In this document: positions 1 to 48,548 of the stretch, in pieces
Layout of the letters: the number at the start of each line of letters is the position of its first letter
How positions within the stretch are numbered: the stretch's first letter is position 1
From: Tubulanus polymorphus
Lineage: Eukaryota; Animalia; Nemertea
Assembly (NCBI RefSeq): GCF_964204645.1
Contig: NC_134031.1
Location: 3,658,001-3,722,000 of the forward strand
Direction: 5' to 3'
Length of the DNA: 64,000 nt
The notes under the pieces: model-generated
Database searches by the model: none
Seen by the model: the letters and a program-made list of their open reading frames with translations, nothing else
What the model was told of the DNA's origin: nothing
Position numbers and translations under genes: made by a program

Positions 1-109
1 CGACACCTGGTGGATCCCTGTAGAATCCTCGCTTGCCACAGTACCGGTCCCTCACTAACAGCATACGCCACGAAAGTAAACTATTCTAGTAACATCAAAT
101 CGATCATAA

Positions 110-583
110 CTAAAGCATTCCAATAGGCTCAGTACGACTACATCTCTCATTTCTGATACGACCTGTGCACTTTCTTGTACCACAACATTGTGAACTGGAG
201 AAACATCTGCTTCCCATTGGTTTACAAGGCATCGACCTGCATTCATATCTTCCGGGAACGAATTCCCAACCTTGAGTCCTTCCTCCTGTCATCATACACC
301 TCGCTTTGTAACCAGGACTATCTGCCGCGCAACATTCTTCATTAGATCTACAGGCCTGACCTTGTGGCGTACATTCCTTTTCCTTCTCCTTAGGTAAACA
401 ATACGTGTTGGGCATCGAGTCTAGAATTTTTCGGCACACCCTTTCTTTGCCCGGTTTTGAACAACACGTATCTGTTTGGCGGTTGCAGGGTTTTGCCCAT
501 TCTATGCATCCTGCGTCCTGACTCGCGTTGACATGCGCGAGCATGAACATCAGCAAACCACTAGTTATCATAAACAGATTCAT
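110..583 (-). CDS. Secreted triple-knottin (3x ICK-type, 18 Cys) toxin-like protein, paralog 1, 157 aa
   Basis: The likely ATG is at 583; the ORF-track GTG at 604 lies in a 5'UTR intron. Hydrophobic signal MNLFMITSGLLMFMLAHVNA is followed by three modules: C-X6-C-X6-CC-X8-C-X11-C, C-X6-C-X5-CC-X10-C-X18-C, C-X6-C-X5-CC-X4-C-X8-C. Frame and all cysteines are conserved with the paralog at 2776-3210. Confidence 0.9.
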   Translation of the reverse strand: MNLFMITSGLLMFMLAHVNASQDAGCIEWAKPCNRQTDTCCSKPGKERVCRKILDSMPNTYCLPKEKEKECTPQGQACRSNEECCAADSPGYKARCMMTGGRTQGWEFVPGRYECRSMPCKPMGSRCFSSSQCCGTRKCTGRIRNERCSRTEPIGML

Positions 584-586
584 TTT

Positions 587-675
587 CTGAAATAATAAGG
601 GCACGGTAAATAAATGTTCATACGATTGATTTACGTGCTACTAGACAAAATGCACAATTTCAAGTTTTTACTTAC
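587..675 (-). other. Predicted 5'UTR intron of knottin paralog 1
   Basis: Minus strand reads GTAAGT...cttattatttcAG|AAAATG. The equivalent intron in paralog 2 is 3214-3306. Confidence 0.7.
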
Positions 676-1248
676 TAGTACGTTTCTTCCACCAACGTCA
701 CCGAGGAAATGTCCGAATAACGCGGATTAAGGGTTTTTAAACAGACGATTATAAATATGAATTTATATTGTTCACGGCAAAAATCACAAAGACATTCACC
801 GATGCGATGCATGCGTTCCAGAACAGGAACCAACAGGTCAGCGATGGCTCATTGCCAACAAGTTAATAGGAATTGAATCGTTTTGCTATGAGCGCTATGA
901 TCTTAAATTGACCAGGGAAGTCACACTTCCCTGAATTGACCAATATTCAATGTATACAGCATAGGTATTATTCGGTCAGTCAAACATTCATACAATTCTG
1001 TGAGGCTAACACACTCCATTAACCTTCAGCCAATTCACCATAAGTCACGATTGATAAAACACTATATGTGTTGACGCGATGTAGAGAGAATCCCACAATG
1101 ATAAGGAAAAAGGAGAATATAAATATAAATTGTAACTTAAAATCAGTAGTAAAGGGACAAACTAGGGGCACTTAAATTAAAACAATGGTGAATACAAGTT
1201 GAGACTAAGATTGATGGGTGACACATAACAAAGGGATCAAAGGAGAAT

Positions 1249-1491
1249 TCAGGTTTTAAGTTTAACCAGTTCACAGAGGAATTTTGATATAAGTTTATTG
1301 TGGGGTGAAAAACCATTGTTAAAATTTACAACATCGTTCGAATTTTCAATTATTAGTGCAGATTCCAAAATATGTCTTTTAGTTTTATCGCTGCAAGGGT
1401 AAATCCATTCGGCATTAACGAAATCAAAATTGTGTGAGGTCTGAAATACATGACTAGCAACTCCGCTTTCAGGTTTAAAGTTTTTTACATC
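1249..1491 (-). pseudogene. C-terminal fragment of Penelope-type GIY-YIG endonuclease
   Basis: Open frame DVKNFKPESGVASHVFQTSHNFDFVNAEWIYPCSDKTKRHILESALIIENSNDVVNFNNGFSPHNKLISKFLCELVKLKT*. The pattern S.VA.H....H.FDF...R.ILES..I......N...G is typical of PLE endonuclease C-termini. Confidence 0.8.
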
Positions 1492-1705
1492 TAACTAGTG
1501 CTCGATTTTAAGTTACAATTTATATCTATACTCACTATTGTTTCTTATAATTACCCTTGGTTTGCTTCCCTTTAATCTATCTTAACGTGTAACTGTTTCA
1601 ACGTTCATTTTCCTTTATGTATCATCTCTGATTACTTGAATTAGTCTCTTTGTCTCTGGATTGTATATATATATATATATATCTCATAATTTTTGTTATA
1701 TCTCA

Positions 1706-1751
1706 TTATTCCTGAAGATGACTATTAGGATATAGTCGAAACGTTGAATAA
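1706..1751 (+). ncRNA. Minimal type I hammerhead ribozyme (Penelope-associated)
   Basis: TTATTC-CTGAAGA-T-GACTAT(TAGGAT)ATAGTC-GAAAC-GTT-GAATAA: stem I TTATTC/GAATAA, core CUGANGA and GAAA, stem II, palindromic AACGTT in place of stem III. Confidence 0.8.
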
Positions 1752-2386
1752 ACTACTATCTCAAAGTTACATTTTCGGATTTTTTCCTTATCATTGTGGG
1801 ATTCTCTCTACATTCACCATAAGATCCAGATAATACTGCATACTGGTATTCTTCACTGTTTTGAGCACGATCACACGGAGACGATTTGGCCCTGGACCGA
1901 ACCCGAGTCAAATTTTGTCCAGTGCTTCTTACCTCACAATCACTGGTTTATACCAGTAAGCGTTTTATGGAATTATTTTACCAGTGTAAAAATTTCAGGC
2001 CGTGTCAAAACAGCTATTTGGAACAGTTGGCTTCGGTATGGGCCAAACTTGTCGTGCATCAAAAATGCTCATGTGATGGCTGCTCTAGTCATCAGATTTA
2101 TAGAGGGTTTTCTTTTTCCTGGGGACATGTTTGAAATTCCACAACGGTTTGTTTCACTGTCAACTACGATCTCGTCAGGTATCTTCACAGGAAGATCACA
2201 CTTTCCAATGAGAAAATGGCAAAAAAATCAGATTGCCATAGATACATAAATTCCTCATTGCATCCAGTTTCATGTGATTGGTCAGAATCGAAACAAGTCA
2301 GGAGAAGAAAAACTTCTGAATGTTCTGTTCATCGGAAATTCTTAATTAAATGAATTAAAAATACAACAAATAGTCGACAAATTGAC

Positions 2387-2392
2387 TTTATT
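2387..2392 (-). terminator. Candidate polyadenylation signal of knottin paralog 2
   Basis: AATAAA on the minus strand about 385 nt after the stop codon, followed by a GU/U-rich tract (TTTGTTGTATTTTT). Confidence 0.5.
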
Positions 2393-2775
2393 TTAATTTT
2401 AGATGTCACAAAAAACCTCACTGAACTTATTTTCTTGAATTAAACAACTGACCACTAATCATTACTATCAAAAACACAAAATCGACATCTTCACCAATTA
2501 ATCTACCATGAAATGACTACTATGACAACACAACAAATGAGTTACATATAGCGAAAATATGTTGATTAAAGCGATGAAATTTGAACTGGATTTTAAGGCT
2601 ACAGATTTAAAATATATTATCAAATGACGGTACCCCATCGAAACGTGGTAACCAAGTTACCACTAGCGACACCTGGTGGATCCCTGTAGAATCCTCACTT
2701 GCCACAGTACCGGTCCCTCACTAACAGCATACGCCACGAAAGTAAACTATTCTAGTAACATCAAATCGATCATAA

Positions 2776-3210
2776 CTAAGGCATTCCAATAGGCTCAGTA
2801 CGACTACATCTCATATTTCTGATAGGACCTGTGCAGCTTGTTGTACCACAACACTCGTAACTGTAGAAACATCTCCTTCCCATTGTTTTACAAGGCATCG
2901 ACCTGCATTCAAATCTTCGTCCTATCATCGTACACCTCGCTTCGTAACCAGGACTATCTGCCGCGCAACAATCCTCATTCATGCTACAGGCCTCACGATT
3001 TGTTTTACACCTCTCCTTATGTAGACAAATCGTTGCGGGCATCGAGTCTCGAATTTGTCGGCACACCACTTCTTTGCCTGGTTTTGAACAACACGTATCT
3101 GTTCGGCGGTTGCAGGGTTCCGCCCATTCTATGCATCCTGCATCCCGACTCGCGTTGACATGCGCGAGCATGAACATCAGCAAACCACTAGTTATCATAA
3201 ACAGATTCAT
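2776..3210 (-). CDS. Secreted triple-knottin (3x ICK-type, 18 Cys) toxin-like protein, paralog 2, 144 aa
   Basis: Identical 20-aa signal peptide and the same 18 cysteines as paralog 1. Indels relative to paralog 1 are in frame (linker 5 vs 8 aa; last loop of module 2 is 8 vs 18 aa). Confidence 0.9.
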   Translation of the reverse strand: MNLFMITSGLLMFMLAHVNASRDAGCIEWAEPCNRRTDTCCSKPGKEVVCRQIRDSMPATICLHKERCKTNREACSMNEDCCAADSPGYEARCTMIGRRFECRSMPCKTMGRRCFYSYECCGTTSCTGPIRNMRCSRTEPIGMP

Positions 3211-3213
3211 TTT

Positions 3214-3306
3214 CTGAAATAATAAAGGCACAGTAAATAAATGTTTATACGATTGATTTACGTGCTACTAGACAAAATGCACAATTTCAAGTTTTTACTT
3301 ACTTAC
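3214..3306 (-). other. Predicted 5'UTR intron of knottin paralog 2
   Basis: GTAAGT donor, pyrimidine-rich tract and CAG acceptor 3 nt before the ATG. Confidence 0.7.
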
Positions 3307-3360
3307 TAGTACGTTTCTTCCGCCAACGTCAACGAGGAAATGTCCGAATAAATTAAGGGT

Positions 3361-3367
3361 TTTTATA
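3361..3367 (-). promoter_or_regulatory. TATA box of knottin paralog 2
   Basis: TATAAAA on the minus strand about 60 bp upstream of the 5'UTR intron donor. Paralog 1 has TTTAAAA at 735-741. Confidence 0.5.
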
Positions 3368-3560
3368 CAGATGATTATAAAAATGAATTCATATTGTTCA
3401 CGGCAAAAAATCACAAAGACATTCACCGATGCGACGACGCATGCATGCCAGAACCGGAACCAACAGGTCAGCGATGGCTCATTGCCAACAAGTAAATAGG
3501 AATGGAATCGTTTGTTATGAGCGTTATGATCTTAAATTGACCACTTCTTAATTCCAGCAT

Positions 3561-3766
3561 GAGGAGAGAATCCCACAATGATAATAAAAAGTCCGAAAAT
3601 GAAACTTTGAGATAGTAGTTTATTCAACGTTTCGACTATATCCTAATAGTCATCTTCAGGAATAATAAAACTACTATCTCAAAGTTTCATTTTCGGACTT
3701 TTTATTATCATTGTGGGATTCTCTCCTCATCGCGTCAACACGGATATTGTGTTTTACCTATCGTGA
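3561..3766. mobile_element. Penelope-like remnant: inverted pseudo-LTR pair plus short tail
   Basis: 13-bp TSD TTAATTCCAGCAT (3548-3560 and 3767-3779); inverted repeat of about 60 bp (3561-3621 / 3668-3728) enclosing a hammerhead. Confidence 0.85.
3620..3665 (-). ncRNA. Minimal hammerhead ribozyme copy
   Basis: Reverse complement of the motif at 1706-1751. Confidence 0.8.
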
Positions 3767-4605
3767 TTAATTCCAGCATATTTTAACGATTTCAATATTC
3801 ATCACTCCCTGTGTTGCAAATGGTACAAATCATGCAGATTGATTACTATCCACAAAATATCCAGATACCTATCGCCCTAGAATGATAGTGGTCATCAGGA
3901 GCAAGTCACTAGTAGACAGTTTTCAGTTATGATTTGACTCGAAATTAAATCATCGGAAATGAACCAATTTCAACTCAGAGCTAAGCCCCTGTTTCATTCC
4001 CGGCAGGTGTGGTGGGTTTGTGAGGGACACTCAATCAAAAAATCGAACAAAATTTATTACCAACCAAATGAATTACAGGGTCAATCCCTATTTAAAAAAA
4101 AAAATCCGAACTGTGGAAACGGGTCCTGGTTCGTAGACGGTTGTTCGTTTCGAGACATCAAAATAATGGTTTGATTGGAAATAAATGATAATTATTCTGA
4201 TTTTGATATTTCGAGTATTTTCATATTTTTGGAATAGTTGAGCTCTTTTTATCAAAGAGCAGAAGCTACTCTCAAATAGTAGCTGTAGTCAGATCTACAG
4301 TGCCGGTGTATACGCGATATTCGACTATATGCCGGTGTATTGTATACAAAACACAAGCGAGGACTTCAGTCGAATTCGTTAAGTCAAAGCCAACATTTTC
4401 GTGGCGCCTTTTCACGGATCATTAACCGAATTACCGAATTCGCGTTCGAAAAACGAAATTTCTCCGAACGAGATGAAAGCCGGCGCGAGCCGCTTTAATC
4501 AAGCGAGCGACATCCAACGCAGTTTCTACCGTCCGTAAAAAAAAATCGCAATTAGCCGCGCGGAAGGAAACGCGCGAGCGAATATGTCGATGATTTTCGA
4601 CGAAC

Positions 4606-4744
4606 CTGTTTATTTCCTGACTTGCGACGTTTGATGTGCGGTCTGAAGTCGTCGCCGTGACGTACGAAGTAGAAGTACGACACTAAACGCTCCAACGGAT
4701 CGCGTATTAGATTTATATACAACGGTTTCTGTATTGCACCAAAT
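4606..4744 (-). CDS. HS2ST1: HS2ST1 exon (139 bp) with 3'-phosphate-binding motif
   Basis: (R)FGAIQKPLYINLIRDPLERLVSYFYFVRHGDDFRPHIKRRKSGNKQ; phase 2/0. The next expected exon (TFDECV-like) was not found in 1-4605. Confidence 0.97.
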
Positions 4745-6157
4745 CTGAAAAACAAAAATTCGCATATTAAATTAAAGCCGTTACGCGCCGTAGTCACGAG
4801 ACAGAGCTTTTTATTTCAACAGGACGTGTAGTCTACGATATAAGTTAGGCTACAAACACTATAGAAAGATATCCTACGTCTGAAAAAATTTGAAAGACTT
4901 TTTCAGACCAGACTCAATATTTCTAATCGTTTTAGTTTTCGCCAAAAAAAAGAGTAACTCGAATCAAAAATAGTAGTTTGATTGAAAATGAAACAGAAAT
5001 TATTCTGATTTTGAGAATATTTTGATATTTCTGGAGTGAGCTCTCAAATATTAGTCAGAACTGTTTGTGATATGGAAGTTGCTCTACGGTTGCTTGATAT
5101 AATGAACTAGAAACAGTTCTGATTCTATCGAGTATTTTGATATTTTTGGGAGTAGTTCAGTTCTTTAAAACAGTAGAAACTACTCTCACACAGAAGTCCA
5201 CGCATGTTATTCCGAAAGTAGAACTTTTTACTTATAAGTTTTTACTTATAATATGGCGAATGATTCACTGAAGAAATTTGCCTAGTCTTTCACGAGCTTC
5301 AGAAAATCTCTTTCCATGACATAACAAGATTTCCTCCACTGTCCATATTATGTAGTTAAAAAAGCTTGGTTGTCGCAGAAACATCTAACTTCTGTATTTA
5401 GCCACAGGCAGTTTTTGACTTCAGAAAGAAACTCGATTTTAAATCTCCCCCATCCCATTATGTACTATGATTGCCGCTGTGTACAGCAAAAAAGTTTTGT
5501 TGGATAAAATGATCTTGCCTCGAAGGCCAGCAGCAGTTTGATTTTTTTTTAAATAAAAAAATCCCAGACATGCTCATGATTTACGAAGAGACTGCCGGCC
5601 GGGGTCTGCGGTTCAAAAATTGAATTCGTTTCTTTTGCACGAGGAGGAATCTCTGTTACTCGAGGGATCAGACGAAATGGAAATATTTACACAATAACGA
5701 ACTAAATATTTATACAATTGAGGAAACATTTATACAGATTTTATACAGCGGAATACACACGTCAACTTGGAGAATTCTAAACATACGCAGAGCTTGAGCA
5801 TTACAAAACAAATTTCCACTTATTGAATCTGCGAAAAATATCATATTTCAATAATTTTAAAGGTTATTCCTCCAGAAACTAGACCCCAAAACGATTCTAT
5901 TCAATGCATCTGAGAGAAACCAAAATTATGAAGATTTTAAAGGTTACCCGATGAAAACTGACTCCGTTTCATCAACAATTTCAGAAATATCAAAATATCC
6001 AGACTTTTGTAGGTTATCATATCTCCAAAACTGAACGAATCTGAGAAAACTCCAAATGTCATAAAACAGTTAATTCCGTAAAGCGATATGTGAACAAAAC
6101 CATATTGAACCAAGTCCAGTTTAGAGTCGATGAAACGATTATTCTCATGTTTTTTAC

Positions 6158-6243
6158 CTGGTAAATTCGAGGTAAGCTAAATGACCATGATACATCGCCG
6201 GTTGCTTCGCCTTCCATTTCGTTATATTCCGAACGAATCTCAT
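6158..6243 (-). CDS. HS2ST1: HS2ST1 exon (86 bp), not in the ORF track
   Basis: MRFVRNITKWKAKQPAMYHGHLAYLEFT(R) includes the catalytic-region HGH motif; poly-T tract with CAG acceptor, GTAAAA donor, phase 0/2. Confidence 0.95.
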
Positions 6244-11025: not shown

Positions 11026-11214
11026 CTGATCAGATAGAGATAATGTGTGCATATTTTTGGTAATATTGAAATGCAAAACGCTGTATTTGTTTTGAGTGCA
11101 GAGATCGTATGCGATACCGGCGAACGATGTGCTACCGGTCTTCGGTACACGGTTATATATGATAATATCATGGTCGAACTCGGGACTAGACGATGGGTTC
11201 TCATGGTAATCCTC
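11026..11214 (-). CDS. HS2ST1: HS2ST1 exon (189 bp) with 5'-phosphosulfate-binding loop
   Basis: EDYHENPSSSPEFDHDIIIYNRVPKTGSTSFAGIAYDLCTQNKYSVLHFNITKNMHTLSLSDQ carries the HS2ST signature IIYNRVPKT[AG]STSF; canonical AG/GT boundaries, phase 0/0. Confidence 0.97.
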
Positions 11215-11319: not shown

Positions 11320-11690
11320 GAGGGCTACAGCCCTTGGACAAACTGGTCCCGAATGAGACCCTAGTCCTATGTGGACCCCCCAGACTCTCACCTTTAGAGT
11401 GCTACATTTGGCACAGCCCCCCGGACAAACTGGTCCTGAATGAGACCCTAGTACTATGTGGACCCCCAGACTCTCACCTTTAGAGGGCTACAAGTGGCAC
11501 AGCCCTTGGACAAACTGGTCCCGCATGAGACCCTAGTCCTATGTGGACCCCCAGACTCTCACCTTTAGAGTGCTACATTTGGCACAGCCCCCCGGACAAA
11601 CTGGTCCTGAATGAGACCCTAGTCCTATGTGGACCCCCAGACTCTCACCTTTAGAGGGCTACAAGTGGCACAGCCCTTGGACAAACTGGG
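11320..11690. repeat. ~85-bp minisatellite with alternating A/B units (~170-bp higher-order repeat)
   Basis: Units alternate gtgctacatttggcacagccccccgg and gggctacaagtggcacagcccttgg. Confidence 0.9.
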
Positions 11691-12404: not shown

Positions 12405-12558
12405 CTGAAAAATATTCACAAAATGCATATTTTTTAACTGCGCAAATGACTAAAAGGTCATAGAAATTTGATATAGAAATTTTGCGATTATTCGGCATAG
12501 TTGGTCATATATGCAATAAATCTAATTGGGGCCAAGGAAATCTAACTTTAAGCCCCAG

Positions 12559-12827
12559 AGCCCGGTTCTGTAGTCAAGACTTAAGACCAAAAGTAATCTT
12601 AAACCTTACGATTGGTCTTAAGTTGTTAGATTGGCTATAGAACAAAGATGGTCTTAAGTCAAAGCCCTGACTCTGGAACCGGCCCCAGGGGTCTGTTGCA
12701 TAGTTATGGCTTAGACTTAAGACCAGTCTTAGAGCGACTTAGTTCTGCAGCCAATCTAACAACTTAAGACCAGTCTTTAAGATTTAAGACCACTTTCGGA
12801 CTTAAGTCACGACTGTGCAACTGGCCC
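12559..12827. mobile_element. Two adjacent copies of a ~135-bp MITE (family A, PIF/Harbinger-like)
   Basis: TIR GGGCC[AG]GTTGCA[CT]AGT with CTTAAG-rich interior; CAG trinucleotide at 12556-58, 12686-88 and 12828-30. Confidence 0.75.
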
Positions 12828-12855
12828 CAGGTCTTAGAAACCGCCTAATAACATT

Positions 12856-13073
12856 AGCCGCGATCACAGGGAGACGATTTGGCTCGGGCCAAATTGGCAC
12901 GGATCAGGCTCGATCCGAATTTGGTCCGTGGCAAATTAGAGAGCGCGTTCACACTCACTCGATACTAAACAAATCGAAGAGTCATTTCCAGTTCAAGTTG
13001 CGATTCGAACGCGATCATTTGTCCCCTACCTAAAATTTGGCACGGGCCAAAGACGCTCGTGTAGATCGCAGCT
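12856..13073. mobile_element. MITE family B (TIR AGCCGCGATCAC)
   Basis: Terminal inverted repeats. Related copies lie at about 1864-2086, 11730-11985, 15340-15525, 22900-23175, 23956-24260, 25740-26090 and 43705-43962, sharing aatttggcac and tgctgtggcaagtgaggtgagtcac motifs. Confidence 0.7.
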
Positions 13074-13657
13074 ACAGATTCGAACGATGTTAACATATGT
13101 ATCAGGGAGTTTCCCCTGTGTTGACTATCAATGTTTCTCGTAAATGTTTATCACATCAAATCGAATCTAGAATCTAAAATTTCAAAACTCGATTTCGTAA
13201 TATTTCGCGCCCCGGAGGTGCGCGCGGATCGCATTTCATAGCGACAACAAAGCTGTCGTTTTTATCGACTTCGTTGTTCAGAGTTGATATATATCAACCG
13301 TATACACTTGAAAATGATGCATCGTCTCGTCGAAATGATACAAAATTGAACGCATCATAAAAAGGGAGTGAAACGCGCGTTGACGCCGTAAACCGAGCTA
13401 CTCTATTACCTGCAGGGACCTACTTCAGTATAGACCGGTTTCAATCGCAGCCCTTCATTTATCTAGTATTTGTCAAACCCCGAGGGCTAGTCGATATAAT
13501 AGTTTGAACTTTTTTAAATAAAAATACACATGAAAATGTATTTCATATGTATATATTACGAAAGCGCGTCATGTTGATTCAGGTAGAACATTATAATACC
13601 TTTTTCAGGTTGAACTTCATGGATGGTTTCACTCATTGCCAATTAAGCTGGACCAAG

Positions 13658-14085
13658 GGGGGCCAGTTGTACAGACTGCTGGGCCCAGTGGCAAGTCCCT
13701 AAGTGGTTTTGAATCACAACTAATTTTAACTGCTTATAGAACTGAAATGGGCAAGATTTCTAAAAAAGTTGTTAGACTGGCTATAGAACCAAAATGAACT
13801 TAGCACGGTCGTAAATCTAAGCTTTGCCTGCAAGACTGGCCCCGGGGCACAGTCTCGAGTTAAGTCCAAAGTGGTCTTAAATCTTAAAACTGATCTTAAG
13901 TTGTTAGATTGGCTGTAAAACGAAAATAAGCTTAGACTGGTCTCAAATCTATTAGTCTATATGTTTTGACTGTGTAACTAGCCACAGGGGCCAGTTACAT
14001 AGTCGTGGCTTAGGCTTAAGACCCATCTAAGATCAACTTAGTTCTATAGCGAATAACTTAAGCCATGACTATGAAACCAGCCCCT
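13658..14085. mobile_element. Cluster of about three degenerate family A MITEs
   Basis: Repeated aagttgttagattggctatagaac core and GGGCCAGTT termini. Confidence 0.7.
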
Positions 14086-14302
14086 GGGTCTTTGAAACTG
14101 GCTCACAAACAAGAACTCAAAATTGGACAGATTTTTACGATCGTAAAAGATCCTCGAGCCGTGTTCATAATCTAAAAACGACGCAGTGGTCGTTACGAAA
14201 TAATTTCCTTATTGAGACAGTTGTTTATATTAAGCGGTACATCAAAGAACAATCATATTAGAGCTGTACGGCAATCAGTGCGAATCAGATTCTCATCTTT
14301 AC

Positions 14303-14667
14303 CGGAGCAGGAGAGAGAGGCAGGGAGCGGGAGAGAGAGGTAGGGAGCGGGAGGGAGAGGCAGGGAGCGGGAGAGAGGCAGGGAGCGGGAGGGAGAGGCA
14401 GGGAGCGGGAGAGAGAGGCAGGGAGCGGGAGAGAGAGGCAGGGAGCGGGAGGGAGAGGCAGGGAGCAGGAAAGAGAGACAGGGAACGGGAGAGAGAGGCA
14501 GGGAGCGGGAGAGAGAGGCAGGGAGCGGGAGGGAGAGGCAGGGAGCGGGAAAGAGAGACAGGGAGCGGGAGAGAGAGGCAGGGAGCGGGAGAGAGAGGCA
14601 GGGAGCGGGGGAGAGAGAGGCAGGGAGCGGGAGGGAGAGGCAGGGACATGAGGGAGAGGCAGGGAGC
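14303..14667. repeat. 20-bp purine-rich minisatellite GGCAGGGAGCGGGAGAGAGA, about 18 copies
   Basis: Directly visible. Confidence 0.95.
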
Positions 14668-16899
14668 TCTAAGCTGCGGTAATTATCGGTGCACGAAACC
14701 ATGGATATCATCGCAATCATCTGCCGCAATATGCACTTGTTTGCTTCATGGCTCATTTAATACTCGTTTGCTCCTCGCTACTGAAAACAATTCTATCGGT
14801 ATATACCGGGCGATGAGCAGCGAGGAGTCTAAACGTGAACGCTGGCTGCATCGTTCTCCGATGTTATATCAACACGTTTACACGGTAATATGACTTCCAG
14901 ATATCATCTCCGGAATGACCGACCGATGTGAAAATTTGTGACAAATTCGGGATTCGAACCCGATGTCATCGCAAGAAAAAAAACGTCCTCCTTCAACCTA
15001 GTCGGTAACCTTGGATATTCTCGTTCCGATTATAAAAGCTTACCACCAACGATTAGGTAATTAACTACGGTAAACCCTGATGTAATCATCACTTCGAAGG
15101 AACTCGAATCCGGTACAAATCCTTCTAGATTAATAACCACATTTGAATCTGATGGCGATACTTATTAAACTCATCATCCACCATCACAGTTACCAGCCAT
15201 TGTTGGACTTTGCCGCAGTACAAACCCCTGGCCCTAGTAGACTCATCATCATATAGATCTTTACCTGTTGATGTCATGAGACTGTCAGAGCATAAACCCC
15301 TGCTCTAGTAAATCGATCAATTAATTCTGCCCGGAATAGACCCCAGTTTTGACCCCAAATTTGGCCTGTGCCTAAAGATTCACATGTAAATCACTCACTA
15401 CAAATACTATCTAAAATACCATCAGAATGATGCTGTGGCAAGCGAGTTGGCGAGTCATTTCCAGGGCTTCATCCGGCGTTGGCTAAATTTAGACCGGGTC
15501 AAAAGGCTCAGGTGATGGCGGCTGGTATTCGTACGCCAGTCACACATGAAAAGCTGTATTTTTCTAGTCAGATTTTCTTTTTTTTCAGTCTTCCGTCGGA
15601 ATACCAGTTATTACAACCTACGCGAATAGAGGGTATAAGACGCTGACCGCACGGACGCCGAAATCTTTTTTTTTACCCCTGCGCTTTAGTGCCGGTAATT
15701 TTCTCGGAAACTACACGAACGCGACTGCGTCCGCGAAGTCTCAGAAGTGTCCGCTGTCAACGTCGACGCCGTTATAATTGATTCGTGTCGCGTTTTTACG
15801 TTTTTATCTTCGCGTCGCCCCCGACGACGACGGCCCCCGGCCTCATTTATCACCGAACGATAGAAATTATTTTTCATCGGCCACTTACGACGCGATCAAT
15901 GGCGACGTTCGGTTGACCCGCAGCTGATTGGCTGATCTATCACGAACACGGGCGTCGTCTGCTTCGTAACTATGGTAACAGTCGTGCCGCAAGGCGGCAA
16001 AAGTCGAGAAGTATAAAAATCGGTCACCAGTTTATAGAAAGTCGTCGTATCATCGGAATCTTGAGCGTGGGAAATGAAGTCGAAGACAAAAATCTTTGTG
16101 AAACGTCAAGAAAACGGATTTCATAGTTATTATTTCATTAAACCTTTCCATGCACCTGAAAGGGCTAGAGATAATTTGAAAATTTCTAAAAATTCCACAA
16201 CAGTGCGTTGAATAATGGGCACAATTCTTGCATCTACACTGCAATGCGATGTATTGTTAGTTGTAATTATTCCATTGTTTGACAGCTGCCATCTTTTAAT
16301 TCAGATAAAAACTAATAGCATCAATACACCGCTGTGCAGTGTACTAGCTAAGTACATCACCAATTTATACACTGCACTGCGGTGTAGACACATTGAAAGG
16401 GTTAATATTGTGAGTTTTTTATATAGACTATGTAGTGATTGCAAGTAGTAGTTGATTTCGAGAAAAAGGTTCTTCAGAACGTCATCAGGATTTTTGCCAT
16501 GCATGCGTGATATCTTGCACACAGTGGCCAAAAATATAATAACCGGGTAACTGGGTTAAGGAAAGCCGTATTCAGGCACGTTTAATGGCTTCATCAAAAT
16601 CAACACCACTTCATCAATGTAAAATGGCCACTTGGTAAAATCACACATAGATATAATATATCTTTCCCTCTCTATTTCTCGTAGGCAATGTCAATATTGA
16701 TTTGAGGCAAAAAAAAGCCGATAAAAAACCAACGACCGCCATTTCGCATCATGCTCGTCACAGACACCAGTGTGCCAATAAACTCATCTGTTACGTATAG
16801 AATTATTTCCGAGTATTGAATCTGAATAACTTTCTGTCTGTTATACTTAATATCATCAGTCTGTGACCATCACAGGTTCGTTCAGCGTCAGTTCTGTTG

Positions 16900-26300: not shown

Positions 26301-27937
26301 AATCAACACGGGTTAATCTTCTTCATAAACCCCTCAGGCGTCGACGGCGATGCGCTTTTTTCGCACGGCGGTACCGCGGATCAATTTACCGTAATTACCG
26401 ATGAAATAAGTTCGGCGCGTCCTTTTGAACCGAGCGGCGCGCGAAGAAAAATCGACAAAACTCATTTAGTCGGTTTCCATCGATCCGCCGATGATCGCGA
26501 TCATCACGGCCGAAGCCCTCGGTAAACGAACGTTTATCTAACGCGACGATCGGTAATTATTCCGGAGATGTCGCAATCTCGCCCCCCCCCTTAGTTCCTA
26601 TCCTCCCTGAAATCGTTAGCAACAACGACAACTTTTGAAGACGGAAATCTATCCGCGAAGAAAAGACGAATCCTTAAAAGCGTCGACTTTGAGCGAGACG
26701 TATTCAAACGGCTAATCAAGCCTCATATCTCTTATTTCCGCGTATGAATTTAAAAGTAGCTTTCTCTTCTTAGTTGAGGGTATTCCGTTCATTTTCAACG
26801 CGTTTCGAAATATTCCAAAAACTTTCATCTTCGATCTCGTTTCAAAGCTAGATCTATTCCCGAATGGTTTGATGCGTTCGAAAAATTTTTCTCAAGTTCG
26901 CGCCTTTTGGATTCTTTTCCATCGTTTATTTCCAAAATCATTTTTGAAGCGCCGGGATTATCTTGAAACTTAGTGCATTTCCGTTTTTCACAAAACCTTT
27001 TCTACTCATTCAGATTATTATTTTTAAATGCGCCTTTGATTTCTTGTGAAGATAATAAGCATTATAATTCGGTGCCTTTTGATCTTTTGTGACGTTTCTT
27101 TCGAACAAGGTTCGATTTTTCTTATTAACTACGCACCATGAAGAAATTTGCACCTTTGATTTCACTTGAACCCTTTTCAATGCGTTCTCAAAGCCTTTAG
27201 ATGTTGATGTTTTACGACCATTTCTCAAAAAAATATTTCAGAGTTTGATTTTTTTTCATTACACTCTGCGCGACGTCATCAGGGTTTAACCGATAATTGA
27301 AGTTTATCGCTCTCGACGCTTTTCAATGGCCGCCGCCGCCGTATTCGATTGGAGTTTAATCAGTTTAAGCGCCGCGCATTTCTCGCGTCGCGCGGCACCA
27401 CCGCGGATCGTAAAACAATTTACGAGCAACTTTACACATACGGAATTAATAATCGCGGCGCTCTTACTGGCGAAAAATGATTGATTAAGTTTCTTCAAAT
27501 TCGAAAACTGATTCGCAGACGAGTCGTAGAAGTGAATGACTGCTGACTAGATGTAAGATTGGCTATAGAACTATAAGTTCATCTCAAACTGGTTTTAAAC
27601 CTAAGCTATAACTAAGGAACGAGCCCCAGCGCTACCAACCTCTGATCGGCAACGAGTTGAATTGAATTTTCAGGAATTTTTTTCTTTTCGGTAACATTTC
27701 ATTGAAACATGAAAGAAAATGTTCAAATTCGTCAATAATCTATGGCAAAAATCCCGAAGTAACATCTTTCACATTCCTGTCTAGCATCATAACGAATGAA
27801 ACCTAGTATTTCTAGGAAGAAACTGAAAATCAGGAATGGTTAGGGGCAGTTCTGATTCATACGGCTTGTTTAAACTAAAGACATGGCCAATTTTGGACTT
27901 TTGACTAACTAATCTGATTTCCGACCATAGTTTCCAA

Positions 27938-28451
27938 TCACGATTGGTAGAACACTATATCCGTGTTGACGCGATGAGGAGAGAATGCCACAATGATAAT
28001 AAAAAGTCCGAAAATGGAACTTCGAGATAGTAGTTTATTTCAACGTTTCGACTATATCCTAATAGTCATCTTCAGGAATAATGAGATACTACAGAAATTA
28101 TGAGGTATATATACAATCCAGAGACAAAGAGACTAATTCAAGTAATCAGAGATGATACAAACTAAAGGAAAATTAACGTAGAAACAGTTACACGCTAAAA
28201 TAGATTAAAGGGAAGCAAACTAAGGGGTGATTATAAACAACAATAGTGAGTATAAATATAAATGAAACTTAAAGTCAGTAGTAAAAAGAAAGACAAACTA
28301 GGGGGCACTTAAATTAAAACAATTTCGTCTCTGACTTAACTTGTATTCACGTTTGTTTTAATTTAAGTGCCCCCTAGTTTGTCTTTCTTTCGAAGTTTCT
28401 CTTGAAGTTTCATTTTCGGACTTTTTATTATCATTGTGGGATTCTCTCCTC
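27938..28451 (-). mobile_element. Penelope-like remnant with inverted end
   Basis: Flanking direct repeat CATAGTTTCCAATCA (27926-27940 and 28451-28465, partly overlapping the termini); body homologous to 1045-1811. Confidence 0.85.
28035..28081 (-). ncRNA. Minimal hammerhead ribozyme copy
   Basis: Same core and stem II as the other copies; one extra A in the 3' strand of stem I. Confidence 0.7.
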
Positions 28452-29149
28452 ATAGTTTCCAATCAATTCAGATTAATTTTGCGGCAAATGAAGGTTGAGG
28501 ACATTTCCATTACCAACTCAGATCTTCTGACCCCGAAGAAACTCCAAAAGAGAACTAACTTTAATCAAAATCGAGATTGAAAATTAATAAAAAATTTTTC
28601 AGCCGATATCGTCGAGCTTCTTTAAACGGTAAGTAGCGTATCGGTGGCATTAGGGAGGTTTCATAGTCACCTCGAAATATTCGTCCCCGCAATTTAAACT
28701 AAGACCGAGTTTAATTTCGAGATCTCGAGCGCCGGTTTCATCGCGAACGCTTTACGTAAATATTAAATACAATCGCCATGGCAACGGTACGCTACGATTG
28801 AAAAAAAAAATCCACCGATTTGCCGAGAGCGCGCGCGTCGACGCGAATTCGATTTATCGCGAAAAGAAAAAATCGAACCGTCCCGTCGTCGCGCGGTGCG
28901 TTGATTACGTTTCGCCGTGATTACCGTCGACGATCGCAGCCCGACCGACGTCGACGTCGGAATTGAGTTTAATTCGATGAAATTGAAGATCAAACTTCAA
29001 TTTCACCTCTTTTGATCGTCGTTCGTGACGACGTGTAAAACGAAACTTCAAATACAGTAAGAGTTAAAGTAGATCTACGAGCGTTTATCTAGTACACAGT
29101 ATCTTGAATCTCGTATCAGGTCATATACCAGTCACAGTATATAGACCCC

Positions 29150-30062
29150 CACTATCCTTCCCTCACAGGGATTTGAACCTGACGGTATCATGAGACTCTA
29201 CCGCAGTACAAACCCCTGCCCTAGTAGACACATCCTTCCTCACAGGGATTTGAAGCTGATGGCATCTCGAGACTCTGTCACAGTACAAACCCCTGCCCCA
29301 GTAGACACATCCTCCCTCACAGAGATTTGAAGCTGTTATCATCTTGAGACTCTGTCACAGTACAAACCCCTGCCCTAGTAGACACATCCTTCCTCACAGG
29401 GATTTGAAGCTGATGGCATCTCGAGACTCTGTCACAGTACAAACCCCTGCCCCAGTAGACACATCCTCCCTCACAGGGATTTGAAGCTGTTATCATCTTG
29501 AGACTCTGTCACAGTACAAACCCCTGCCCCAGTAGACACATCCTCCCTCACAGGGATTTGAAGCTGTTATCATCTTGAGACTCTGTCAAAGTACAAACCC
29601 CTGCCCCAGTAGACACATCCTCCCTCACAGGGATTTGAAGCTGTTATCATCTTGAGACTCTGTCACAGTACAAACCCCTGCCCCAGTAGACACATCCTCC
29701 CTCACAGGGATTTGAACCTGATGGCATCTCGAGACTCTGTCACAGTACAAACCCCAGCCCCAGTAGACACATCCTTCCTCACAGGGATTTGAAGCTGATG
29801 GCATCTCGAGACTCTGTTACAGTACAAACCCCTGCCCCAGTAGACACATCCTTCCTCACAGGGATTTGAAGCTGATGGCATCTCGAGACTACCGCAGTAT
29901 ACAAACCCCTGCCGTAGGAACACCCATCATCCTCCCTCACAGGGATTTGAAGCTGATATCATCTTGAGACTCTGTCACAGTACAAACCCCTGTCCTAGTA
30001 AACACATCCTCCCTCACAGAGATTTGAACCTGATGTCAACATGAGACTCAGCCACAGTACAA
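29150..30062. repeat. 77-bp tandem repeat, about 12 copies; degenerate relatives near 15190-15310, 49510-50160, 59490-59600 and 60280-60580
   Basis: Unit cctcacagggatttgaagctgatggcatctcgagactctgtcacagtacaaacccctgccccagtagacacatcctc. Confidence 0.95.
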
Positions 30063-33000
30063 TCTGCCAGACCAATCCCATTTACTTAAAGGGATATGCA
30101 CCAGATAGCATCGTAAGACTCTGCAACGCTATGAACTAGTAGACACCATCTATTTGATTGTGAGAGACCATTTCTAAAGTACGCATATATCCATGGGGGA
30201 GGCGTGTGAATTTGGCCACTCTGTACGTACATGGGGAAGACTACATGGGGAAGACGGCCGTTGCATATCAGGCTGCAGTTCCTACTCTAGCAGGGCTTCG
30301 CATGCAATGGGTGATTCAAAAGATTATGACGAACAGGCGCCACATTTCTCCATCAGCCGGCCATTAACATCCATTTTTAACCAGGCCGAAACTTTTCAAG
30401 GGAAGAAAAATTAAAAAGAAAAAGCCGATCGATCCAAGGACACTAGAATTCGATCCCCGTCGTACGGGGCCGGAAATTCCCCTGATTACGATTGCGACTC
30501 GTTAATGAACATATAGGGAAATCATCAAGTGATGGATAAGTGGAAGATATCCACGTCTTAATTAAGATAAATCACCTCGCGTCGTAGAACGGGGGCGGAC
30601 GAAAGAACATCGTTTCAACCTCTCTCTCTCTCACTGCAGATCCTGGCAGCAAAAACACCGGTGTGTTGTTGTTGTTGTTCGACGGGAATATCCGATAGAA
30701 AAATCTCAAATATGAGGAACATCTGTAAATTTTGTTATGTGTTTCAACATATCTCAATTCGTATTAAATATACATGCGTTCTTACGCTGAAAACTATGAT
30801 GCTCATAGTATCACAGATAGGAATCGTCTCAAATCTTTGTTGTTAGTTGGACTTCAGAAACAAAATGGGCTTCGAGTGGTCTTGATAAAGTTAGACGGGG
30901 AAGAGAATGGTCTTAATTAGTTAGATCGTACCAATACAAGGCATCGACTTGTCTTACGTCAAAGCCTTGATTGTGGAACTGTTTCAAGGTTTTCATAAAC
31001 CGTGTTTTGAAGAAAACCTGCAGGGTTCTTACTGTTTACCAGGGGCGGATCCAAGGCCTACTTTCGAAGGTCTTGTGAAGGTCTTGTGACGTAATTTTTG
31101 ACACAATTGCAGGTAAAATGCATCCAACAACAAATCTTAGTAGGAAACTTGTCATTATCCAACCATAATATGCAAGGAGGTTTATATATAACAGACCATT
31201 TGATAAGGCAGTATAGTAAGTAAAAAGAGTTGATTGAGAAAAGGGCAACTCAAAACATTTCAGGGTCTTGTACAAGGCCAACGAGACAACAGCCCGGATT
31301 TAGCTAGGAAGAAAATATTTCAAATATTGAGGTCATTTAGATAATCAAAAATGAGCGAGGATCGAAATTAAATCCGGTTTCAACTCATCACAAACAAAGT
31401 TGTTTATACTGAGAAATTAATGATGCTGTTTTAAATAAACATCGACGCAAGCACGCCGTGAGTTGTGTCTCGTAGAAAAATAAATGCGATCCATACATAA
31501 TAACTGGAAACATAGTTGGCAAGGAACGTATAAGATAAATAGGGAGCCTCTAGTTATAATCAGATAACAATGTAACTTCACGTGAATATAAATATAGACT
31601 AAACAATCCAAAAATGGAAATATTGATCGTGTATACTTGAAATGATCGATCGTCAACAGACAACAATAAACAGCAGCCGGCTGTTCGGTTTGATGTCAAA
31701 TGAAGACATCGAATCAACTGTTAGCGCTATTACCAGACGACTAATTATTGGGGAACGTACAAAGCTACCGTGACTATCCACCAGATGTCGCTAGTAGTTA
31801 TTCGGTCTTCTGCCTTTGATTTCCTTTACATTTCGATTAAAATCGAATCAAATTTGCTCTTCTATAAATGAATACCAATCACGGATGAGAGAAATGAATT
31901 TAATCTATGGTTTATGGGTCCTGCGATAATGTATGGATTCGGAAGCCTAAAAATTCAGTTCCAAGTTGATTGAAAAGTAATTTTGACGGATGCTCGTCAC
32001 ACCATCTGGCACAGGTGATATTCGGAAATTTCCGAGATTTGGACTGGTGGACAGATGAAAATGAAATCTAAGAACAGCTGAAAAGCTTTCCTTTCAAAAC
32101 AATAAACTTCCCTAAAACTAGTAAATATTTCCTGTTATTCAGTGCAATGAACGTAAACATGTTTCCTCAACAAACGCCACCATCAACTACTTGATTTAAC
32201 TTTTTTGAGGTAACTCAGTTCCCGCTAAATGGCGCCAAATAATATCCAGTCTGTTTCAGGCAGTTTTTAAGTGTATGTTAATTATGAGTTAATGCCACAA
32301 TATGTGAACCAGCTTCCAAAAACAAACATCTGCGTTGTTTTACCATTACGCCGAACAAACCACATCGGCTTATCAACTTTAGTCATCCATCTTATTTAAT
32401 TCGTTCATCGTCTAGAATGAACTTCTATTTTCCTACGTAATAACTCGCGCGATAAAACGGTCCATCATCATGGCACAGCCACACGGTACTATATACTATC
32501 TAAATGACTTTCTTACCGAAGAAAAGTAACTGTTGGCTTTCAGTAACGCGCGCACATCTGGAACTCCTGCAACTCGGTATTGTAGGTTTTCACCAAAGAT
32601 TTCAGAGCCACTTCACCTGAACGCAAGGTCTATCCATCATCTGGTCGATGAGCATCTTAATCATGAGATGGTAGTCAGCGGGTTGCTACATGAGGCCGGC
32701 CACATGTCCACGGCCTCGAATGAGCATCAAAACTTATGGCGAATCTAAAAACTTTTAAGTCAATCGGAGATTACAAAAATATATTTCACCTATAATGGCT
32801 ATTAGGCCGAGCACCGGTCGCCCAATTCTCTGCGACAACCAGAAACCATTAAATCGCAAGACAGCGTCAACCTATGTGGCCTTCAGACTACCAGCGGTGC
32901 AAGATATCATGAAACACACATGTTCTATTCTACTTTTTCTGCTAAGTGATATGACCGTCCCTCCATTCGGATTAGAGCATTTCACTAGTTCATGAATATC

Positions 33001-33742: not shown

Positions 33743-34328
33743 CGTGGTAGCAGTCGGTCAGTCAGTCTTTCACTGGTCTCTCATCAATCCAGGGTTCATG
33801 TGTTTGTTGGAATGCTGGTGGTAGCAGTCAGTCAGTCTTTCACTGGTCTCTCATCAATCCAGGGTTCGTGTGTTTGAATCCTGGTGGTAGCAGTCAGTCA
33901 GTCTTTCACTGGTCTCTCATCAATCCAGGGTTCGTGTGTTTGAATCCTGGTGGTAGCAGTCAGTCAGTCTTTCACTGGTCTCTCATCAATCCAGGGTTCA
34001 TGTGTTTGAATCCTGGTGGTAGCAGTCAGTCAGTCTTTCACTGGTCTCTCATCAATCCAGGGTTCATGTGTTTGAATCCTGGTGGTAGCAGTCAGTCTTT
34101 CACTGGTCTCTCATCAATCCAGGGTTCATGTGTTTGAATCCTGGTGGTAGCAGTCAGTCAGTCTTTCACTGGTCTCTCATCAATCCAGGGTTCATGTGTT
34201 TGAATCCTGGTGGTAACAGTCAGCCAGTTATTCACTGGTCTCTCATCAATCCAGGATTCATGAGTTTGAATCCTGGTGGCAGTAGTCAGTCAATGCTGAC
34301 TTATGGGTTCATCTCCTGGTGGCAGCAA
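33743..34328. repeat. 66-bp tandem repeat, about 8-9 copies
   Basis: Unit ggtggtagcagtcagtcagtctttcactggtctctcatcaatccagggttcatgtgtttgaatcct. Confidence 0.95.
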
Positions 34329-36188
34329 ATAGTGTTCGGACCTCGGTGTAGGAATCAAACTCTTCCCGGAAAATATATTTCTTAAAGAAGCTACAACTTA
34401 ACATCAGACAAACAGACAAACATCCAGAGATCCTATTTCTGAAGACCAGATCACGAATTCGAGACAGCGTTCAAGACATTCGCGTTTATGACCAAAACAG
34501 AATTCTTCACTTTTATCCGTCGCTACTAGCATTCCAATAACAATCGTTAAACCTCCGAACACTGCTATCTAAGAAAATATCTCTCTCTCTCCCTCTAAGT
34601 AGCTACATCTCTACCGTCTTAGGATAAAACTTTCTGAGAAATCTTTCATCGTCTGCAGCTAACTACTGAGCAGAAGAGCAGCTCACTTCAACAAGCTACA
34701 TGTGCAAGTGATTCTCAGTATTGTAGAGAGTTATAATTCATCATCATTGGCGCGCACAGAACCATGGCTGTACGGAACCGGTACTAACTTATCATCACTA
34801 AAATGAACCTGATCAGGCGCTCACAATTTAAAGCGTCTAATGCCATCATGACAGCCATTACCCTTTTTTCATGTATACCATCCTGATGTCGCTCTTTTCT
34901 CAGGTAGGGCAATAATTAGTTTCATTCAACTCCGATACAACTACTTCAACATAACCCTTTACTTTCATGATACTTAATTGTTCATTAATTGTTTAGAATT
35001 CGAATAAACTCTGAAGAGATGTCAGGAAAACTGAATCTATAGATATCATCGTTTCATCGATGTAATGGGTTTTTTTAACACTATCAGTTCACCTAGGAGA
35101 AACCTGACATATTTCTAAACAAAAATTTCTGACCCGACCCTTAAAATATGTTCGTTCAATCGCTCGATTCAGGAACATTTTTACAAAATCCGATTCGAGC
35201 CGAGTCTTATGCGCACCCCAACTCGCTCTCGAGTCGACAAATATTCATGGTCCAAAAATACCAATTTTCTGTACATGTTTATGACAGTTTGAGTACAGTA
35301 TCACGTATACGATGTTTGCCTGCACTGAAACAAACGCATGTAACATGTTTACACCAGTGACAAATACCTGCAAAATGCGTGTTAATAATAATACGCTGAA
35401 CATATTGGAAAAGACTAGAGCAAATATTTAGCGCAATCGCGGTGTAAATTTGCCTTTACTCTTAGGAGCAAATTTACCTATACCAAATCTTAGAATGTGA
35501 TTCAACGATAGAATGATAAAAATATGAGAGAGCATTGTTTGCTACCCCTTGTAAATACACTTCACGAATGCCCCTTAACCCTGAAATGGTTTAAACTATC
35601 AGCTAGGTCCATCTAGGTCCAGGAAAGGTAAGGCTACATTAAAGCCATTATCAAGCGGTGACGTTTTGGCCCAAACTGGCCCACGACAGGCCCGAGTCAA
35701 ATTTTGCTAAGAAACCACCCCTGCAGTTCCCCCCCCCCCCCCCGTACTGCACACACGGCCAAAACCGTTGTTGCAGATGGAACAACAAGAAATGATTTAT
35801 CACTTTTTCTATTTTACCTTACTCTAACGACCAGATGGTTGAAACATCTGCAAAAAACACACACACACTCACCTGCAACGAGAAAAAACATACAGATAAT
35901 GTGAGTTACAAGTTACAAAATAAGCCGATTACTAAAATGAAAACTGCTGCGCGAGCACAAATAAGAGTTAGTTTTTCTATAACATTGGTACAAAAATAAA
36001 CGAAAATTCAAAACAGGTATTTGCCGTTTTTTTTTCCTAGGAGGGGATTGAACCCGCAGGCGTTGGACTCGGGGCAACAGGTCTGAAGTCACAGCAGTTT
36101 CACAGTTAGCAAGCATTTTTTATAATTCATCCTTTTCGTCACTATTTATACCGGTGACAAGGCTTTCGTCTCAGTTCGCCGTGCCCTA

Positions 36189-47264: not shown

Positions 47265-47587
47265 GCTGGATCCAGGTCATGGCTTTGTTTTAAGACCAGT
47301 CTAAGACGATCTTAGTTCTATAGCCAATCTAAGACCACCACAAATTAGTATCAGGGGCTGGTTGCATAGTCATGGCTTAGACTTAAGACCAGTCTAAGAC
47401 TAACTTAGTTCTATAGCCAATCTAAGACCACCACAAATTAGTGTCAGGGGCTGGTTGCTTAGTCATGGCTTAGACTTATGACCAGTCTAAGACCAACTTA
47501 ATTCTATAGTCAATCTAACAACTTAGGACCAGTCTTAAGATTTTAGACCACTTTTGGACTTAAGCCACAACTCTGCTACTGGCCCCA
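47265..47587. mobile_element. Family A MITE with tandemly repeated partial copies
   Basis: Repeated ggggctggttgcatagtcatggcttagacttaagaccagtctaagac units ending in ctggccccag. Confidence 0.7.
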
Positions 47588-48548
47588 GGAGTATCTGAGG
47601 GTCTTACTATCGATCCATGAAAATAGTATCCATGCAATAGGCTTTCAACCCCTTTCCTAAGTTTATGTCAAAATTGTGCCTTGGTTTTTATGGAAATTGC
47701 CCTTTTCAAAATTTTAGAAACCCCCATGATCCTTCCTGAGCCTTCCCATTGGCCATATCACCTGCGTTCCAAGTAGAAGCAATATTCTTTCTTTTTATCG
47801 TCTAGTTTTAAGATCAATGAAATCGAACTCAAGGCCAGTATCTTTTTAGAGTCGGGCTAAACCTGTTTACCGATCTCACAAATATAGAACCAGTATCTAT
47901 ACGTAAGATCAACACGAACCAGACTCAAGACTCCAAATCGTAGCCAATTTCTTCTACTGAAAGCTCGACGCGCTCAACATCGAATTCTCGCGTCTTGTAC
48001 CGATCTATTAACATTGAGCAATGCGTAACTCATACTATTAAAACTCTCCGGAGAAATTTCAACCGACCGAACACGACTAAACGTATCTAACCGCTCGCAC
48101 CGGCGGCGACCGGTATAAGACGCACATATTTAACGGGCGCGCGGAACGTGATGAAATTTTAAGAGCATTATAAATACGCATCTATCACGATTATTCAACG
48201 ACAGTTATATTTACCGACATCATTAAACGTGTTGACAGTACGACTGTTTTCAGAGTTATCAGCAAAATTCAGTAGTTTATTAACTTCGGCCCTTCGCTTC
48301 ATTCGATTCCGGATTATGACGATAAATAGCATTAATAAAAACCAACAATATCAACTTAAACAATCGTTATTGTGTTTTTTTTCTAATGTTTAGGATGAAA
48401 TGCTTCCACCAATCATCAGAGTTCAGGACTATTTGAAAATGACAGTTATAGTTACAATAGTAAGGGCTTGCTAATCAGGAACCTCTCCTGAAGAAAAATC
48501 AACGGAGGACAAAATCAGAAAAAGCCTCGACTGGTTTTACATGAACAG

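Follow-up and report, generated by a model that had tools for sequence, protein, structure and literature searches.

The 64,000-nucleotide stretch of the Tubulanus polymorphus genome analyzed here (contig NC_134031.1, positions 3,658,001 to 3,722,000; hereafter the window, numbered from its first letter) carries near its left edge a tandem pair of genes for small cysteine-rich proteins, each predicted to be a string of three knottins. Both genes lie on the reverse strand, as do all exons, introns and protein segments described below. The coding sequence of copy 1 occupies 110-583 (157 amino acids in one coding exon, lying under spliced RNA contigs), and that of copy 2 occupies 2776-3210 (144 amino acids). 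In each protein, a 20-residue hydrophobic leader that closes with V-N-A and a five-residue stretch precede three consecutive modules with the cysteine framework C-C-CC-C-C, and a nine-residue tail follows them. The two proteins are 77% identical (111 invariant columns and 33 residue changes), and they differ by two in-frame indels of 3 and 10 codons, with 18 of 18 cysteines kept.

The leader of copy 1 (amino acids 1-20, positions 524-583) was called a signal peptide from its hydropathy and the V-N-A motif, without a SignalP run, and a helix covers residues 4-24 in the structural model. The proteins are thus predicted to be secreted, and very probably are. Only five residues separate the predicted cut from the first cysteine, which leaves no room for a pro-region and agrees with an earlier sequence-only reading of this DNA, in which no obvious propeptide had been seen. 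If the leader is cut after residue 20, the computed mature chains have masses of 15.3 and 14.0 kDa and isoelectric points of 8.8 and 8.6.

All six modules satisfy the six-cysteine framework. In copy 1, module 1 (C26-C62, 398-508) has loop spacing 6-6-0-8-11, module 2 (C71-C115, 239-373) 6-5-0-10-18 and module 3 (C120-C148, 140-226) 6-5-0-4-8, with net charges of +3, 0 and +6, respectively. In copy 2, a framework scan placed module 1 at C26-C62 (3025-3135, again 6-6-0-8-11), module 2 at C68-C102 (2905-3009, last two loops 10-8) and module 3 at C107-C135 (2806-2892, again 6-5-0-4-8). The window contains six such modules arranged as two triples, whereas 100 simulated windows of matched dinucleotide composition yielded eight single modules and no triple, so that the two intact triple-module reading frames of the sequence-only reading stand. 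The module-2 hairpin of copy 1 is 10 residues longer than that of copy 2; this longer hairpin, which copy 2 lacks, contains W, F and V and was modelled as two long strands. From the model, this long hairpin is a candidate binding finger.

The modules are joined by short linkers. The first is LPKEKEKE in copy 1 and LHKER in copy 2, and the second is RSMP in both, remaining identical between the copies although the loops diverge. As had been noted from the sequence, none of the four linkers contains KR or RR, and dibasic pairs occur only inside loops. Both linkers contain K or R; the arginine of the second directly follows a cysteine, and the arginine that closes the first linker of copy 2 is absent from copy 1.

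Sequencing runs are named here X1 to X9, and eight of the ten listed runs were compared with the window. Run X5 consists of RNA, because it joins two exons of the neighboring gene HS2ST1 (4744 to 6158). One 975-nt contig of X5 spans 676-814, skips 587-675, spans 1-586 and then continues matching 2417-2666; it comprises the first exon, the coding sequence and the 3' UTR. Copy 1 therefore has an 89-nt GT-AG intron in its 5' untranslated region (UTR) at 587-675, with the joint 586-676 present in X5, and a non-coding first exon at 676-814, of which the given limits are those of the contig and the true start may differ. An AATAAA motif at 2387-2392, 25 nt past the end of the X5 contig, is a candidate polyadenylation signal. 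Run X6, from the same sample as X5, gave a 728-nt contig that uses the same acceptor; in addition, 41 nt of X6 sequence lie beyond a joint at 3307, where the donor of copy 2 is predicted. The homologous 5'-UTR intron of copy 2 is predicted at 3214-3306 (93 nt, GT-AG). In each copy the acceptor lies 3 nt ahead of the ATG, and a donor that matches it is found some 90 nt further upstream. Because the transcript contig extends to 814, a TATA-like box near 738 was dropped as a promoter candidate.

The transcript is nearest to copy 1, with six differences on 1-586. Among the five of these that are listed, four alter a residue and none a cysteine; two agree with copy 2 and three with neither copy. 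It is either an allele or a third paralogue. Its first exon (676-814) is also mosaic, in that three of the six listed differences from copy 1 match copy 2. Contig depth was 29.3 in X5 and 3.9 in X6, and such depth cannot rank genes. The coding region of copy 2 was uncovered in X5 and X6, and nothing in X8 and X9 could be placed on the window, neither of which proves absence. Given that a copy-1-like transcript is spliced in both RNA runs, copy 1 is almost certainly a real gene, as the sequence-only reading had assumed for the pair.

We also examined the extent of the duplication. The left copy of the duplicated unit (1-914) is 87% identical, with gaps, to the right copy (2667-3543) and runs off the window edge; the X5 and X1 contigs apparently carry its continuation, which supports an extension of the unit past the left edge, and the homology on the right likely continues to about 1839. 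Contigs of the DNA run X1 match copy 1 at 117-549 and copy 2 at 2783-3176 with no differences, and one passes the end of the homology at 914, again with no differences. Because X1 contigs match both coding regions exactly and cross 914, both copies are real sequence. Two further X1 contigs align to 1839-2269 and 2361-2812 with eight and seven differences, one of which is the copy 1 letter at 2780. Judging from these matches, they likely represent the part of the copy 1 flank that lies to the left of the window, and the duplicated unit would then be about 1.7 kb long.

A larger array, as had been suggested, is hinted at by read depth only. No third copy or module remnant was found within the 64-kb window. 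In raw reads of X7, mean depth was 7.8 and 8.5 on the two copies against a background of 4.7 (1.7-1.8 times), where the background was taken from six of 30 bins chosen as single-copy, with repeat-bearing bins left out. These values hint at three to four copies in that individual, at low depth. The X1 contig depth was 15.1 on copy 2, 43.9 on copy 1 and 33-41 on the flanks; contig depth is no copy number, and the gap is a weak hint of copy-number variation.

An inverted-repeat element resembling a miniature inverted-repeat transposable element (MITE) lies at the upstream edge of copy 2 (3559-3730, X7 depth over 1000), and pieces of the same family lie between the copies (1045-1203 and 1504-1808), so that a unit of roughly 1.7 kb would be bounded by MITE-like pieces at 1504-1808 and 3559-3730. 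Unequal recombination near these flanking MITE copies is the likely origin of the gene pair. The family, which has long inverted repeats, occurs at 1045-1808, 3559-3768, 27936-28455 and 58925-59156, with X7 depth up to several hundred times background.

Three HS2ST1 exons precede the knottin genes and share their strand; they lie at 11026-11214 (match to HS2ST1 in the PDB, E 1.8e-18), 6158-6243 (E 3.6e-07, spliced to 4744 in X5) and 4606-4744 (E 8e-15), the last in the window, whose donor is followed by the knottin genes. The three exons match positions 369-493 of a 658-residue PDB fusion chain, and about 160 residues of HS2ST1 are not in the window and presumably lie to its left. No later HS2ST1 exon was seen in 1-4605 with a motif scan and a six-frame listing, and a search for the first exon gave no result. 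From this arrangement, the knottin genes likely sit in the HS2ST1 intron that follows the 4606-4744 exon. An intronic location had been claimed in the sequence-only reading, and the upstream half of that claim is borne out by the three exons; because the remaining ones fall outside the window, the nesting itself is deduced rather than observed. The knottin genes have a first exon of their own, and we therefore infer an independent promoter. The HS2ST1 donor at 4606 is in phase 0, in frame with the acceptors at 586 and 3213 ahead of the knottin ATGs (a one-in-three chance); a stray splice from 4606 to either would fuse the N-terminal half of HS2ST1 to the knottins. No such fusion joint was found among the RNA joints listed.

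The window as a whole has a GC content of 41% and a CpG observed/expected ratio of 1.15, with no CpG depletion. It contains minisatellite arrays at 11327-11689, 14264-14703, 29082-30134, 33763-34358, 50734-51707 and 54698-55441 (periods 86, 10/20, 77, 66, 34 and 12/22), which yield long low-complexity open frames, and a second family of dispersed repeats, which includes inverted copies, at 12556-14094, 47276-48686 and 54146-54275.

To return to the proteins, a search for relatives found no characterized family in Pfam or among protein representatives, in line with the sequence-only reading, which had not recognized the family. Sub-threshold Pfam matches were mostly to knottin toxin families (Toxin_12, Toxin_19, Conotoxin_I2 and Cys_Knot_tox); the whole proteins stayed below the cut-offs (15.9 against 21 bits and 15 against 23.2 bits), and the best single module gave E 0.006. 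Dickkopf_N gave E 0.52 in one of the six modules and no match with the whole proteins. A full scan of 1,835,955,588 protein representatives, which had no positive control, gave a single match, P0003, which we rejected as a summed-repeat artefact (1559 amino acids, 27-34% identity over 29-37 residues, no CC framework). P0003 itself includes a cysteine-containing domain repeated seven times, together with serine-rich spacers and a likely membrane anchor, and has no Pfam domain above threshold. A word-index protein search found no match for copy 1 or for shorter relatives; this blank carries little weight, because the same tool missed a conserved HS2ST1 exon.

Copy 1 had no match in a PDB sequence search, and the alpha-nemertide structure was not among the PDB sequence matches; the best PDB profile match was omega-atracotoxin-Hv1 (E 0.029). 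Metagenome and viral contigs gave 334 and 50 pattern matches, none of them confirmed, with patterns drawn from the leader only. The best score in the protein atlas was 0.88, for an unnamed cluster, and scores under 0.9 are leads only. Rfam gave no matches. Open papers searched with architecture terms did not describe the family, nor do the available parts of PMC5357004, PMC7460313, PMC10674772, PMC12846013 and PMC11891777 describe the sequences; what is said below of other published systems likewise refers to the available parts of the papers cited. Provisionally, and judged by sequence comparison, the pair apparently represents an unreported family.

Structure modelling was carried out on copy 1 only, with output that held neither coordinates nor a bond list. 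The full model had a mean predicted local distance difference test score (pLDDT) of 63 and a predicted template modelling score of 0.44; modules 2 and 3 stood at pLDDT 69-84 and module 1 at 40-53, and module 1 modelled alone with the six-module alignment reached 81. Comparison with 48,161 chains gave 35 chains for the full model and 57 for module 1 at Z of at least 2. Most of these are knottins that cover one module, and knottins dominate for each module: module 1 aligns to Ms11a-2 (Z 4.4, root-mean-square deviation (rmsd) 2.1, 37 residues aligned), module 2 to Hc3a (Z 3.9, rmsd 1.9, 38 aligned) and module 3 to conotoxin GXIA (Z 2.6, rmsd 1.2, 29 aligned). The full model aligns to the double knot Hi1a with Z 3.6. 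The earlier proposal of an inhibitor cystine knot (ICK) in each module is supported insofar as the models resemble single knottins (rmsd 1.2-2.9), though weakly, with Z values of at most 4.4. A knottin is defined by I-IV, II-V and III-VI disulfides that form a knot (PMC2238874), and the models suggest that each protein probably contains three of them.

The modules were compared with one another and between the copies. Identity between modules at non-cysteine positions is only 3-8 of 23-30, with p 0.017 in one of six comparisons and p above 0.09 in the rest. The three modules are therefore unlike each other and do not look like a simple repeated ligand, which weakens the earlier idea of a multivalent ligand made of repeats. 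Between the copies, 41 of 358 aligned nucleotides differ in the mature region, compared with 18 of 431 in non-coding sequence (Fisher p 1.2e-4), and the 75 bases at the start of the coding sequence differ at 2. Leader, intron and 3' UTR are conserved. The faster change of the mature region relative to non-coding sequence is real. The 3' UTRs (1-109 and 2667-2775) differ at 1 of 109 bases, compared with about 11% in the mature coding region, and this identity reflects either gene conversion or strong constraint.

We propose, tentatively and at a little short of an even chance, that the genes encode a defence protein of three knottins that stays uncut and binds a foreign target through its dissimilar modules. 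The genes would be transcribed from their own promoter inside the HS2ST1 intron, and the signal peptide would be cleaved after residue 20 to give a basic chain of 14-15 kDa with three separately folded knottins. The lack of a propeptide, the lack of a dibasic site in the linkers and the four-residue length of the second linker together suggest that the chain is not cut, which we consider rather likely. Loops and charge vary among the modules, and each module therefore likely offers a surface of its own instead of repeating a single binding site; for example, the cationic module 3 may anchor the protein to membranes or polyanions while the long module-2 hairpin binds a protein. The secreted chains may then bind foreign targets, with a microbe, a parasite protease or a predator or prey receptor as candidates. 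The variability of the mature region, a pattern also reported for mussel CRP-I, is counted in favor of this proposal.

Several observations weigh against it. The RNA evidence comes from one sample (X5 and X6). The first linker of copy 2 ends in E-R, a possible site for cleavage at a single arginine. The values of dN (0.157) and dS (0.119) do not differ significantly (p 0.58), so that positive selection is not supported, and gene conversion in the flanks could yield the same contrast between coding and non-coding sequence. No chain reached Z 5 for the full model or module 1, and Foldseek gave no E below 0.001. The top match of the full model was cysteine-rich domain 2 (CRD2) of Dkk1 (Z 4.9, rmsd 3.8, 61 aligned, over modules 2-3), with which the double knot Xt3a (Z 4.3, rmsd 6.8, 71 aligned) is tied; AgRP (Z 3.8) and IGFBP-5 (Z 3.7) were among the matches of module 1. 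Synthetic MgCRP-I peptides, which share the framework, showed neither toxic nor antimicrobial activity and were paired 1-2, 3-4 and 5-6 (PMC4558851). TxVIIB, again with the same framework, adopts a mini-granulin fold; this was attributed to its loops of 2-4 residues (PMC11035057), compared with 4-18 residues in the proteins described here. Because MgCRP-I and TxVIIB fold otherwise, the C-C-CC-C-C framework alone is no proof of a knottin.

The trivalent layout is not as unusual as the sequence-only reading took it to be, because three- and four-module proteins of this framework have already been described in mussel (mCRP-I), and a putative triple in a tarantula transcriptome. The multi-MgCRP-I precursors of Mytilus have two to four C-C-CC-C-C modules in one exon, a conserved leader and a variable mature region (PMC4558851), and have been modelled as a knottin 'pearl necklace' and discussed as possible defence peptides (PMC10138031). 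The knottin pair resembles them in being basic and (as predicted here) secreted, with tandem modules in one exon, short linkers, a predicted knottin fold and the same contrast of leader and mature region. However, CRP-I has a propeptide (about 15 residues, with KR or RR at its end), which the pair lacks, and its coding sequence is spread over three exons (four exons in total, two introns within the coding sequence), whereas the pair has one coding exon and one 5'-UTR intron. Nor does the CRP-I pattern C(X3-6)C(X1-7)CC(X3-4)C(X3-5)C fit, since the last loop is 8-18 residues long in all six modules. The two loops after CC are 3-4 and 3-5 residues in CRP-I and 4-10 and 8-18 here, and the linkers 2-4 and 4-8. 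The propeptide and shorter loops of CRP-I, as published, therefore set the pair apart from that group, which is reported in the available text of PMC4558851 from mussels only.

Among venom proteins, DkTx, Hi1a/Hc1a, Xt3a and the putative triple-ICK U1-Pm2a from a tarantula transcriptome (PMC13172734) have tandem ICK-type modules in one chain and one exon with short linkers, a layout that the pair, with its predicted knottins, resembles. According to the 2026 report of U1-Pm2a, its authors knew of no earlier triple-domain ICK (PMC13172734), although mussel precursors with two to four such modules had been published (PMC4558851). Linkers are 6 residues in Hi1a and 12 in DkTx, and double knots gain avidity (PMC9950431, PMC6262176); the linkers of 4-8 residues found here are in that range. 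These venom proteins are venom-gland products with homologous domains, and the double knots have proven channel targets; in the knottin pair, by contrast, the modules are dissimilar, there is no propeptide, and there is no above-threshold sequence similarity to them. Secreted cysteine-rich repeat proteins (SCREPs; PMC6262176) are also secreted, multi-domain and cysteine-rich, but in the available account their recognition rests on internal sequence similarity, which is barely detectable here. Nemertean alpha-nemertides (PMC5864730) share the six-cysteine ICK framework and are secreted by a marine invertebrate, but they are single 31-residue domains from a prepro-precursor, whereas the pair has three modules and no pro-region.

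The proteins might instead be intact three-knot neurotoxins of venom or skin mucus, which would gain avidity for channels as DkTx, Hi1a and Xt3a do. Most structural neighbors are channel toxins, the best PDB profile match is omega-atracotoxin-Hv1, and a cationic chain with short linkers free of dibasic sites would suit such a role. However, solved knottins are mostly venom peptides, which probably biases the match list; the modules are not detectably similar beyond their cysteines (p below 0.05 in one of six comparisons), and no toxin family threshold was reached. We consider this explanation unlikely.

Also unlikely is a polyprotein from which cleavage at single basic residues would release three knottin peptides as a small cocktail. 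Such processing has been proposed for multi-MgCRP-I (PMC4558851) and was later not excluded (PMC10138031), and unlike modules with K or R in both linkers would be expected of it. Against it, no linker offers a dibasic site, the arginine closing the first linker of copy 2 is absent in copy 1, that of the second linker stands directly after a cysteine, and the second linker is the same in both copies while the loops diverge.

A further reading is a natural hetero-trivalent knottin outside the arachnids, in which three unlike knots on one intact chain would act at different sites of one membrane target, or on membrane and receptor together, with gain of avidity, and in which the copies would be retuned by the 10-residue change in the module-2 hairpin. 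We regard this as rather improbable.

More doubtful still is an internal signalling or modulator protein, with receptors of the animal itself as its targets. Dickkopf, in its cysteine-rich domains, and AgRP likewise have small disulfide-rich hairpin subdomains, and they account for the weak structural matches given above (Z 4.9 and 3.8); in addition, a score of 0.87 was obtained for an atlas cluster in which 24% of the members are Dickkopf_N, and the spacing C-x6-C-x5/6-CC is common to agouti peptides (PMC3397983). However, these domains differ from the knottin pair in cysteine count and layout: the agouti domain, with its 10 cysteines (PMC3397983), does not agree with a total of 18 arranged as three equal sets. 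No colipase-like family was matched either, and the alignment that would correspond to two subdomains packed in one colipase fold is the Dkk1 match over modules 2-3, itself tied with double knots. Dickkopf_N matched a single module at the E value given above, far from the Pfam threshold, atlas scores under 0.9 are leads only, and fast change of the mature region would be atypical of conserved ligands. The Dickkopf domain, too, has 10 cysteines, a poor fit to 18 in three sets.

Finally, it is very unlikely that only copy 1 works and that copy 2 represents a recent duplicate, silent or polymorphic, or an allele that the assembly has set in tandem (which would bear on the pair only): the lower X1 contig depth of copy 2 would suit this, but its frame, 18 cysteines and splice sites are kept despite 33 residue changes and two indels, X7 raw reads lie on both copies at 1.7-1.8 times background rather than half, and an X1 contig crosses 914 with no differences.

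Taken together, the knottin pair represents a real and expressed family that has apparently not been reported, and its architecture, though uncommon, is known. The small set of multivalent knottins is prized for channel probes and drug scaffolds. What the pair contributes is an apparently separate family that has a transcript, lacks a propeptide, combines dissimilar modules and comes in two natural variants, which lets avidity and the question of intact versus cut chains be examined directly. If the proteins are inactive on channels, they would still bear on the role of non-venom knottin strings in invertebrates, as for mussel CRP-I. If the hetero-trivalent explanation is true, they would offer a first opportunity to characterize a native triple knot as a protein.

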